NCBI GenBank assembly: GCA_951406725.2
Contig: OX597830.1
Coordinates: 15,128,001-15,192,000, forward strand
DNA length: 64,000 nt
Direction: 5' to 3'
DNA from: Octopus vulgaris
Taxonomy: Eukaryota
Shown: positions 6,080 through 62,251 of the stretch, piece by piece
Numbering within the stretch: position 1 is the stretch's first letter
Layout: each line of letters begins with the position of its first letter
Position numbers and translations under genes: made by a program
Notes under the pieces: model-generated
Database searches by the model: none
The model's input: the letters and a program-made list of their open reading frames with translations, nothing else
What the model was told of the DNA's origin: nothing

Positions 6080-6446
6080 GCCATAAGCAACCCAGGCGGG
6101 AAGGTGGTCTTGATAAGCCACAAAAATTGCAAAACATCGATGTCCATCACTCCAAATGGAGCCCGTCCACGGCTCTAAGGTGTTTTAACACCGGCGACCT
6201 GAGAGTTATGCATTCTGCTACGCCATTGCAGCCACCGGAAAATTCACAAGCCATATACACTCCGTGTGAGCAGTCATCTAAAAGTTTTTTGTGCATCTTG
6301 ATGTTGACATAAGTTCCTTGCGTTTCCTGATGAGAAAGCGGCATAATATACTCCTTATTCCTTCGCAATTAGGAATATGCAACCTTCGAAACATATGTCG
6401 AAAATAAAGGAATTTTGTTAATTCGTCGTTCAACTCCATTCTTTCA
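6080..6446 (+). mobile_element. Penelope-type pLTR fragment carrying a hammerhead, ending at (TA)n
   Basis: The 3' ~190 bp match both arms of the 27.1-27.5 kb palindrome. It is followed by (TA)n. Confidence 0.7.
6323..6403 (+). ncRNA. Type I hammerhead ribozyme motif (C3-G8 core, GUC site)
   Basis: TTTC-CTGATGA-GAAAGC...ACCTTC-GAAAC-ATAT-GTC-GAAA. Stem III is the palindrome ACATATGT. Stem II has mismatches. Confidence 0.7.
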
Positions 6447-6589
6447 TATATATATATATGTATATATATATATATATATAATCAGCAAGTTAGTCCAAAT
6501 AATGATGCTTCACCAAATGACTTACTAATTAGTAAGGGGTCTACTGATACTCATCAGTCAGGGAAAATATATTTACAACTCGAAGTTCC

Positions 6590-6715
6590 TCAACGGTTCC
6601 ATGTCTCAAAGCCTTATTTCTCCAATACTGACAACGGACGATAAAGCGATACTGGACAAAGTGAAGAGAGTTCTGAAACGATGGCCAGATTGCTTCAATG
6701 GCCACATGAGACAAA
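6590..6715 (+). pseudogene. RTE-clade LINE ORF fragment
   Basis: SPILTTDDKAILDKVKRVLKRWPDCFN resembles the RTE EN-RT linker (PLLS.DG..LITDK..IL.RW.EHF). Confidence 0.55.
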
Positions 6716-7139
6716 ACGAGGGAAAGAAAGAAAGAAAGAAAGAAAGAAAGAAAGAAAGAAAGAAAGAAAGAAAGAAAGAAATCTTTTGATGTTCAGTCGA
6801 CACATGACATGAACGAAAATCAGACTAGAAGAATTAACGACTGGATTTTTCTTCTTTTTTCTTCTTTTCTTTTCTTTCTTTCTTTTTTTTTGTGAAATCA
6901 AACTCAGCATTAAGTATTTATACGAAATGGTGGCAATGTTATAAAACATTTCCTTTGTAAAAGTACACAAATTTTATTCGTGCTAACATGTATAGCTAAA
7001 ACTCATTCTGAGAATGAATAAGCCTACTAAATTTTTGCAGTAATAACCACAATATGATAAACATGATAAAAAAGCGAGTCTACCAGATAGAGCTTCTATG
7101 GATTGGAAACCTGAACATCGAACTGCACCAGTGATACTA

Positions 7140-7350
7140 TTGGTTCTAAATTTTGCCACATGGCCAGCAATTTCGGGCGAGTGGGGTAAGTCGAATACAT
7201 CGACCTGAGTTGCTCAACTGGTACTTAATTTATCGATTCCAAAAGGATGAAAGACAAAGCCGACCTCGGTAAAATTTGAACTGAGACGGACGGAATGCCG
7301 CTAAGTATTTTGCCCGGTGTAGTAACGCTTCTACCAGCTCGCCGCACTCA
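7140..7350 (-). mobile_element. SINE family B (variant tail), diverged
   Basis: Shares the GGCGAGCTGGTAGAA head and the GAGGTCGGCTTTGTCTTTCATCCTTT central domain. Confidence 0.8.
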
Positions 7351-7430
7351 CCAGTGACGATATTAGTATTATTACAGTATCACTACTGATCGGTAGAATC
7401 TAGGTGGGATCAAATTACATTTTAAAGAGA

Positions 7431-7829
7431 TTACTCTTTTACTCTTTTACTTGTTTCAGTCATTTGACTGCGGCCATGCTGGAGCACCGCCTTTAGTCGA
7501 GAAAATCGACCCCGGGACTTATTCTATCGGTCTCTTTTTGCCGAACCGCTAAGTGACGGGGACGTAAACACACCAGCATCGGTTGTCAAGCAATGCTAGG
7601 GGTACAAACACACACACACACACACACACACACACACATAAATATATATATATACATATATATATACGACAGGCTTCTTTCTGTTTCCGTCTACCAAATC
7701 CACTCACAAGGCATTGGTCGGCCCGAGGCTATAGCAGAAGACACTTGCCCAAGATGCCACGCAGTGGGACTGAACCCGGAACTATGTGGTTGGTTAGCAA
7801 GCTACTTACCACACAACCACTCCTGCGCC
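7431..7829 (-). mobile_element. SINE family A, near full length
   Basis: tRNA-like head (GGCGCAGGAGTGG...GGTTCAGTCCC), CORE-like domain, internal microsatellite and (GAGTAAAA)n tail. Confidence 0.92.
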
Positions 7830-60207: not shown

Positions 60208-60786
60208 CTAAAACAATCAAGCATAAAAATATAATTTTTTGCGATTTCAAATTAATTTTTTTTATTTCGCTTGTGTATAAAAATCATGTACTTATTAAAA
60301 ATATTTTAAAATAAAAAAAATTCACTCATTAAAAGGACTATTATTTACTATTTTTTAATTTGTATATAATATTATTTTATAATATAAATTGTTTAAAAAT
60401 ATATTTATTTGTCACAGACATGCTGCTATTAATCCTTAGTAGCTTTTATGTGCAAGCAAATTTCTAAGTTTGAATAAAACCTGTATTTAAACAATATTTT
60501 CAATAGTATCATTTTTTCAATTGTAAATATAATAATTATAATAATAGAAGCATTGCATAAAGTCGTCTAGAATGAAAAATGCGGGCGCAGAATCCTGGAA
60601 AATTCTGGCAAAGTACAGAACAAGCAGTAATTAAGCCTGGAAAATATTGCTGCTGAAGTTAAAGTTTGCTAAATAAATTTATGAAACTGTTCATGAAATA
60701 GCGTGTGCACTGTTTTGTTCCGCATATTTTTTGGCTTTTGATTGCAATTTTTTAAAAAAAGTTTTAATTAATATTACTTAAAGTAT

Positions 60787-60925
60787 ACTAGCCATCTCAA
60801 TATGGCTAACCACTAAAGGTGGGTGTTACTGTAGCTTTTTAGCCCCACGAGATCATCATATCCAGTTGGCTTTAGGCACACTTTCTGTGCCCTTGGAGAT
60901 CATCTCGTTCAGAGATTTATTATTG
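60787..60925. mobile_element. Diverged relative of the 31-kb retrozyme-like unit, with an inverted terminal piece
   Basis: TAGCCATCTCAATATGGCTAACCACT...TTTTAGCCCCA...GTGCCCTTG aligns to 31262-31368. ATCTCGTTCAGAGATTTATTATTG is the reverse complement of 31204-31227. Confidence 0.7.
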
Positions 60926-61476
60926 CTAAATTAATATTTTTTATTTAAAAATTTCTTTGTATAAAGCTAAAACATTTCTGACTTATTTTTATTATTAAAT
61001 CACATTTTAATTATTTTCTTAACAAAACTCATACCAAAATTTTAACTCACAGATACTGCGTTATAAAATTAAATTCATACAGAATATATATAATTCAAAA
61101 CAGTAAAATATAGAAAAAAAATTAAGAAACGAAGAATTGATTTCTTCAAAGTTTGCATTATGTGATAACAAAATATTTTCTATTTACACTTAGAAAAGTA
61201 TTTAAAAAGAAAGGAAAACTAATAAACAAATTACGAACAAAATTTAGAACTGCTTAGTTTTTTTTTTTAATACTTAGGGTTTGTAATTGTCAATTTTGCT
61301 TAAATTGTTATCATGTGACTTTTCAAATATATGAATATGTCATATCAAAGTTTTAATGCGTAAACTAGTAGGCAATTAGACTTTTCACTAAAATTGAAAA
61401 TAAATAGCTTCTTGAGTATTTTAATTTAAACTTTTAAGTACAAATGAAAATATAAAAGGGCATTTATTACTACTTT

Positions 61477-61780
61477 GTGAAGGCACATGGCCTGGTGGTT
61501 AGAGCAGCAGACTCGCGGTCGAGGGATCGCGGGTTCGAATCTCAGACCGGGCGATGTGTGTGTTTATGAGCGAAGCACTTAAGCTGCACGCGGCTCCGAC
61601 AGAAGGTAATGGTGAACTTCTGCTGACTCTTTCGGCACAACTTTCTCTCACTCTTTCTTCCTGCATCTTGCAGCTCACCTGCGACGGACCGGCGTACCGT
61701 CCAGGTGGGGAACCTATACACCAAGGAAACCAGGAAACCGGCCCTTATGAGCCAGGTGTGGCTCGAGAAGGAACAAACAA
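61477..61780 (+). mobile_element. SINE family D
   Basis: Full head to the GGAACAAACAA tail, with TATTACTA flanks. Confidence 0.9.
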
Positions 61781-62001
61781 TATTACTATTTTAGTTTCTA
61801 GATTCTAACTTCAGCAGCAACATTTCAAGTTTTTCATTTTTTGTCCATGCTTAATTACTGCTTTTTCTGTACTTTCCCAGGTTCAATACTTAAGAATAGT
61901 CTAGGATTCTGCGTCCGCGTTTTTCATTCTAGTTACATGATAGGTTGAAGCGAATTCACTTGCTTGTGAAATGCTGAGCCATTGTAGGAAAGGGTAAATT
62001 A

Positions 62002-62251
62002 CATATTCTGTTGTGTCTGGGGACTCTTTTAATGCCTTATTATTTAACACACTCACCGGTAAAATTCCCACTTATTTCTTATTTTTATTTTCTAAACTTT
62101 TCGTTGCATGTTGCGACCTTTTCAATAGTCTTGACTCTTTTATTTTATTTTAGAAAATAAAAATAAGAAATAAGTGGAAATTTTACCGGTGAGTGTGTTA
62201 AATGATAAGGCACTCAAAGAGAATGACTCTCCCCAGACACAACAGAATATG
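62002..62251. mobile_element. Inverted pLTR-like pair (~95-bp arms)
   Basis: 62002-62096 is the reverse complement of 62148-62251. Confidence 0.8.
62092..62128 (-). ncRNA. Minimal hammerhead-like motif with U3-A8 core
   Basis: CUA-UUGAAAA-G-GUCGC-aacau-GCAAC-GAAA-AG-UU-UAG. Stem II is the same as in the 45.7-kb motif. Stems I and III are weak. Confidence 0.5.

Follow-up and report, generated by a model that had tools for sequence, protein, structure and literature searches.

Hammerhead ribozymes of type I lie in the 3′ repeats of Penelope-like elements (PLEs), where they have palindromic stems III and occur in inverted pairs (Cervera & De la Peña 2014, PMC4209133). They are also carried, one per unit, by animal non-LTR retrozymes (LTR, long terminal repeat), which are strongly self-paired tandem non-coding units of 350 to 360 nt (PMC7229834; bioRxiv 10.64898/2026.07.22.740005). 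For the retrozymes, RtcB has been proposed as the agent of circularisation and PLEs as the mobilisers (same sources), and RtcB circularises retrozyme monomers in vitro (PMC7229834). The pair between core positions 3 and 8 varies in nature, with covariation that includes U3-A8 (Perreault et al. 2011, PMC3088659). U6 RNA, in turn, ends in a cyclic phosphate and is joined by RtcB to the 5′-OH end of long interspersed nuclear element 1 (L1) RNA (Moldovan et al. 2019, PMC6789731). We describe here hammerhead cores with four different 3-8 pairs in a 64,000-nt stretch of Octopus vulgaris DNA (contig OX597830.1, positions 15,128,001 to 15,192,000; below, the window), together with chimeras, found in the same genome, that are joined at predicted hammerhead cut sites.

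The cores of the window belong to four repeat families, A to D. We consider it likely that they are type I hammerheads located at PLE 3′ repeats (families A and D, and likely C) and in a retrozyme-like unit (family B), that they cut slowly as dimers, and that the ends are ligated or jumped before PLE copying. Somewhat less firmly, we favor reading the fusions of U6, U6atac, and retrozyme sequence to PLE RNAs as a fossil record that marks in vivo cut sites to the base. Cores with U·G, U-A, and GCAA would then cut in the germline, the retrozyme would be tied to PLE RNA, the family B lineage would have walked from U-A through C·A to C-G and from U-A to U·G with both intermediates spreading, and a G3-C8 family of more than 500 copies would complete the set. 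The observation as first made is real and mostly known; the chimeras at cleavage sites are new here, and the finding also gains from a natural G3-C8 family and from a lineage with four 3-8 states in which a mismatch has spread.

Results

Eight cores are present where the initial annotation placed them: CUGAUGA at 6327 (+), 27251 (−), and 27366 (+), UUGACGA at 31453, 31801, and 32177 (all −), GUGAACA at 45731 (+), and UUGAAAA at 62125 (−). Each is followed, as described there, by a stem II, GAAA, and a short stem III, and the observation of variant hammerhead cores in the window is confirmed. The eight cores represent five separate insertions of the four families. A descriptor for type I hammerheads with positions 3 and 8 free and a palindromic stem III matched 6 distinct sites in the window, whereas 30 block shuffles gave 0.03 on average and never more than 1. 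The two copies that it missed are decayed, with a C at U16.1 (27366) and a nonpalindromic AAGU in place of the AAUU of family D (62125), and the families of both are intact elsewhere. The majority sequences of all four families have the type I core (U4 G5 A6 N7, A9, G12 A13 A14, A15.1-U16.1, H17, and three helices). First-look candidates number more than 1,600 for each family in the surrounding genome, which is 2.8 Gb long and rich in microsatellites.

A stricter descriptor was applied to 100 evenly spaced 10-kb stretches of the genome (1.0 Mb). It gave 28 matches, or about 21 insertions per Mb, versus 0 to 3 matches per shuffled Mb, and the pairs at 3-8 were C-G (16), U-A (5), G-C (4), G·G (2), and C·A (1). 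This density predicts 1.3 insertions per 64 kb, and the window has 4 passing insertions. Since variant cores are common in the genome, their meeting in one window is probably chance and needs no special cause. The expectation that searches based on CUGANGA would miss a large part of the repertoire was borne out, as 8 of the approximately 21 sampled insertions are U-A or G-C; U3-A8 is called rare in PMC3088659.

The indirect evidence for cutting comes from family B and from two U3-A8 families located elsewhere in the genome. Family B is represented in the window by B1, an insertion of about 2.8 tandem 348-nt non-coding, retrozyme-like units ending at (TA)n (31201..32183, −). Its three U3·G8 cores (32177, 31801, and 31453, −) have predicted cuts after 32145, 31769, and 31421, and inverted partial copies of the unit, from which the core is absent, lie at the 5′ end of the insertion (32184..32424, +). 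The base after C17 of B1 is other than C at 11 places; 5 are point changes, 1 is a jump to an internal site of the B1 unit, and 5 rows lead into family E. Family E, not found in the window (loci L012, L069, and L390 to L392), is a PLE with a GIY-YIG domain above the cutoff in L069 and L392, a cysteine linker of the Neptune/Nematis type, a weak stem I, and a U3-A8 core in which GCAA replaces GAAA; it has 1,868 exact matches. The five B1/E rows come from three loci. In all of them the junction follows H17 in both partners without microhomology, and the predicted 5′ cleavage product of B1 is joined to the predicted 3′ product of E. Each chimera has a different E variant that is also found among the E parents, and the three therefore have independent origins. 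Positions −1, 0, and +1 relative to the B1 cut were surveyed, and none of the three rows at −1 was foreign.

The site in family E was also approached from its own side, by collecting copies that begin at the predicted cut and are preceded there by T and a base other than A. The 12 copies comprise 5 fold-backs, 3 fusions to B1, 3 fusions to U6 ends (two loci), and 1 fusion to U6atac. Rfam scores are 52.5 bits for U6 in L393 and 80.6 bits for U6atac in L394; in L395, where no more than the final part of the U6 end of L393 is present, Rfam gives no U6 match. Among 238 rows with U6 ends, the first 100 listed include 6 in which the U6 end runs into the bases that open the predicted 3′ product of another U3-A8 family, F. 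Descriptors based on GAAA miss family E, yet the fusions mark its predicted cut site.

These chimeras resemble the U6/L1 chimeras, in which a cyclic-phosphate end and the 5′-OH end of a retroelement are joined by RtcB and then retrotransposed (PMC6789731). Unlike those, they have as acceptor one fixed, ribozyme-predicted PLE position, and the donor role is also taken by the product of a second ribozyme, B1. By this analogy, we infer that E and F RNAs begin with a 5′-OH at the hammerhead site and that B1 RNA terminates at C17 in a cyclic phosphate. Because the chimeras are joined exactly at the predicted scissile bonds, the U3·G8 core of B1 and the two U3-A8 families, E and F, likely cut RNA in vivo, the genomic junctions being indirect evidence. 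No mention of chimeras with a PLE cleavage product occurs in the available text of PMC7229834 (“chimer” gives 0 matches), and titles and abstract openings in the literature gave neither octopus hammerheads nor cleavage-site chimeras of PLEs.

Other searches for such junctions gave little. No clear case of a foreign end before the B1 3′ product was seen in the first 100 of 411 rows listed, no cleavage-site junction was found for family A, and the searches for C, D, and the short-palindrome subfamilies of B returned point variants, internal deletions, and one unclear junction. Many of the 238 U6 3′-end matches are fused to starts that resemble short interspersed nuclear elements (SINEs). Some U6 fusions form the inverted pairs typical of PLE insertions (C4:31799567/711 and C6:133037413/559), and the partners of such fusions may reveal more hammerhead families.

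The 348-nt unit of B1 is without an open reading frame (ORF), and its circular fold has a z score of −6.1. Family B has the features by which non-LTR retrozymes are recognized, namely, tandem non-coding units of 170 to 400 nt, a type I hammerhead in each, and a high degree of self-pairing. No ORF with GIY-YIG or reverse transcriptase (RT) was linked to it at the loci examined, as expected for a retrozyme-like unit. Unlike the animal retrozymes described in PMC7229834 and the bioRxiv report, it has mostly U3 cores and four 3-8 states. Its insertions show random 5′ truncation and inverted 5′ copies, and their 3′ ends fall at unit position 200 to 203 or 243 to 252 in 38 of 39 loci, some of which overlap. 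The 5′ truncation, inverted 5′ copy, one-sided tail, and (TA)n targets seen in the insertions make up a PLE-type structure; the pattern with a one-sided tail has been described (PMC8557442). Long spacings between B cores were considered as full PLEs and rejected, as they are other insertions or duplications. Assembled contigs of four runs presumed to be RNA hold B-type sequence, contigs being unable to show RNA ends, and those of four other runs hold both the G8 and the A8 state. At L262/L263, the space between family B copies is occupied by a near-complete long interspersed nuclear element (LINE) that has frames for an endonuclease and an RT.

The subfamilies of B differ in their 3-8 state. 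Loop type 1 has 84 U·G, 15 U-A, and 1 C-G among the first 100 of 279 matches listed; loop type 2 has 77 U-A, 12 C·A, 8 U·G, and 3 others among the first 100 of 241; and loop type 3 has C-G in all 37 cores, from 17 loci. The C3·A8 subfamily comprises 26 exact copies at 18 loci, with a median identity of 99.2% among 12 copies examined. Trees were built with columns 3, 7, and 8 masked, from 45 rows (one copy per locus, with 8 B1 copies) and from 28 rows. In these, the C·A and C-G subfamilies form a clade (support, 100/99-100) among U-A subfamilies, and the whole lineage needs two changes at position 3 and three at position 8 (28-row tree). The simplest reading of the order of change is U-A to C·A to C-G; an origin of C·A from C-G by CpG decay would be less simple, taking one more step. 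A single U·G clade was rejected (p-AU, 0.0003), and B1 looks mosaic. The palindromes differ between B subfamilies and each is still self-complementary, stem I covaries, and among 10 aligned units both sides have changed in 9 of the 67 predicted pairs. The predicted self-duplex of the palindromes is approximately −7 kcal/mol for families A and B.

Multi-locus clusters in the 1.0-Mb sample number 10, of which 4 are C-G, 4 are U-A, 1 is G-C, and 1 (family B) is mixed; cluster L078/L157 was dropped as an inversion artifact. The 3-8 pair is Watson-Crick in families A, C, and D, a wobble in B1, and absent in the C·A subfamily. The initial annotation had proposed that pairing is preserved across families. 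This holds in that no multi-locus family is mostly unpaired, and unpaired combinations are not as common as paired ones at the family level; preservation is not strict, as C3·A8 stands at 18 loci. Its further proposal, selection on catalysis, finds no support in genomic copies: when positions 3, 7, and 8 were left free, 82 of the first 100 listed matches of family C (537 in all) had G-C, and the remaining 18 all break the pair singly, none with compensation; position 7 was altered in 6. Given these single, uncompensated breaks, genomic copies appear to decay neutrally, and selection would act only on source elements. Selection on source elements that favors the 3-8 pair and tolerates a wobble and, temporarily, a C·A mismatch best explains the pattern. 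In the same kind of search, the first 100 of 1,095 matches listed for family D comprised 94 with U-A and 6 with C·A, so that the G-C and U-A motifs are each kept within their own repeat families. The swap at 3-8 itself is not new; U3-A8 is in PMC3088659 and in the main text of PMC4209133, and Fig. S3 of the latter has one U3·G8 representative, Saccoglossus 1.

Family A is a Hydra-type PLE with a C3-G8 core. One 5′-truncated 3′ end of the element, ending at (TA)n, lies at 6260..6445 (+), with its core at 6327-6333, a palindrome at 6391-6398, and a predicted cut after C6399. A second copy (27080..27331, −) has an intact core at 27251-27245 and a predicted cut after 27179. Its inverted partner (27330..27491, +; core, 27366-27372) is probably dead because U16.1 has changed to C. 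Two longer copies, L058 and L060, have 1.3 kb in common upstream of the core, with an ORF that ends about 570 nt before it. The CxxC and CxH motifs known from Hydra PLEs are present in the ORF, which matches Pfam GIY-YIG weakly in L060 (20 bits; cutoff, 22.6), with no match in L058. The 3-8 pair is C-G in 38 of 40 copies examined. Stem II is long, unlike that of the metazoan PLE hammerheads shown in PMC4209133. The core has changed further in relatives of family A, to C at position 9 in L008/L009 and to G at position 6 in L041, by decay or as subfamilies; each occurs as an inverted pair. The locus L099:2680-2725 (+) shows, downstream of a fragment of a Hydra-type PLE, a motif resembling a hammerhead in which position 4 is C and GAAA is preceded by one additional base.

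Family D is the U3-A8 family of the window. The 3′ end of a PLE lies at 62002..62138 (−), with the core at 62125-62119, a mismatch in stem II, and a broken palindrome, and an inverted partner copy that starts downstream of the core lies at 62148..62306 (+). At locus L234, an ORF on the same strand ends about 640 nt upstream of the core and matches GIY-YIG at 29.3 bits, above the Pfam cutoff; the frame preceding the endonuclease had no Pfam match. We read families A and D as PLEs, since a GIY-YIG ORF (D) or a GIY-YIG-like ORF (A) stands upstream of the core on the same strand.

Family C is present as a stub (45710..45858, +) with a G3-C8 core at 45731-45737, an extra G before stem II, a palindrome at 45761-45766, and a predicted cut after 45767. 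Most copies begin about 20 nt before the core, and a longer upstream arm exists (187 matches). Family C is likely a PLE 3′ repeat. A 3.4-kb tandem in L266 was considered as the parent element and rejected as a local duplication. In families C and D, an extra base stands between positions 9 and 10.1, as in the hammerheads of PMC4209133, where the Fig. S3 rows examined contain no G3-C8 core, unlike family C. Published G3-C8 was found only as an engineered variant, with no natural family in the partly covered literature on PLE hammerhead variants. Position 1.1 is C in about two-thirds of the family C variants listed, a share too high to come from scattered mutations, and these are possibly a subfamily with a shifted cut site.

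Discussion

The route that we favor can be set out in steps. Tandem or read-through transcripts would pair into dimers through their palindromes, as the palindromes themselves and published work suggest, and the dimers would be cut slowly after H17. The cut ends would be ligated by an RtcB-type activity, or crossed by a template jump, before copying. PLE enzymes would prime at (TA)n and copy the RNA through the junction. For family B, a circular RNA and RtcB-type ligation are suggested by analogy with U6/L1 chimeras and animal retrozymes. Copying requires a template that extends across the cut site; slow cutting may therefore be tolerated, and this would let wobble and mismatch states spread.

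Several observations weigh against this account. Minimal PLE hammerheads in print show poor cleavage in vitro, and cutting failed in 8 of 9 Xenopus retrozyme dimers. The C·A subfamily spread without a good 3-8 pair, copying needing none, and B1 carries a G10.1·U11.1 pair in addition to its wobble. At one base past the B1 cut (+1), 1 of 4 rows has a foreign junction. Cleavage-site chimeras were absent for families C and D in the first 100 of 161 and 154 rows listed, respectively, and fusions of U6 to products of A, B, C, or D were absent among 43 rows. No parent ORF of family C was seen in 30 less-truncated loci plus L266. The palindromes of C and D are weak, with predicted self-duplexes of −0.2 and +2.2 kcal/mol, both families carry U17, and stem I of family D is only 3 bp long.

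A different account holds that the cores are largely inherited relics, that some families (C, the C·A subfamily, and perhaps D) have ceased to cut and travel as passengers copied by PLE enzymes, and that the pairing reflects earlier selection and slow turnover. The amplification of the C·A subfamily and the lack of chimeras for A, C, and D would agree with it, as would B insertions that run through the cut site, so that an uncut or rejoined template gets copied, and Naiad PLEs, which spread without canonical hammerheads (PMC8557442). We consider it unlikely, since the C·A subfamily is either the source or the neighbor of a C-G subfamily whose cores are all perfect, covariation of palindromes and stems is seen across subfamilies, none of the multi-locus families is mostly unpaired, and B1, E, and F have junctions at the scissile bond. 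Less probable again is an origin of the chimeras by RT template jumps or DNA rearrangement at structured or A/T-rich sites, with the position of the cut incidental. Rearranged 5′ ends are frequent in PLE insertions here, nearly half of the E copies that start at the cut site (5 of 12) are simple fold-backs, and the B1 survey is confined to three positions. Against this stand the lack of microhomology, three independent events at one position in both partners, and the fact that all foreign partners at the E site (U6, U6atac, and B1) are known or predicted cyclic-phosphate RNAs; a jump between RNA ends, moreover, would still need both cuts. Chance matches in AT-rich inverted repeats, for which one could cite the two window copies that fail the descriptor and an Rfam scan of the window with no hammerhead family among the 150 of 171 matches listed (only microsatellite-driven miRNA matches), are extremely improbable and already refuted by the shuffle controls, family conservation, and position downstream of PLE ORFs.

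Cutting by small PLE hammerheads in vivo has been an open question since 2014 because of the poor in vitro cutting, and PMC4209133 itself says that in vivo evidence is lacking. Junctions of the U6/PLE type can be sought in any assembled genome; they would make in vivo cutting testable by sequence alone and would map where cores overlooked by standard descriptors are cut. With its four 3-8 states, the family B lineage provides a natural series for the swapping of a catalytic base pair through wobble and mismatch.

Other features of the window

No PLE protein was recognizable by eye among the ORFs of at least 110 amino acids in the window. Short frames at 4479-4892, 53277-53612, 54571-54933, and 59697-60062 resemble, by eye, what we take to be fragments of Tc1-type, hAT-type, and LINE elements. 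Tandem arrays (184 nt) of an abundant SINE-like repeat lie on both strands at 11882-12253, 15144-15511, 48190-48978, and 51880-52247.

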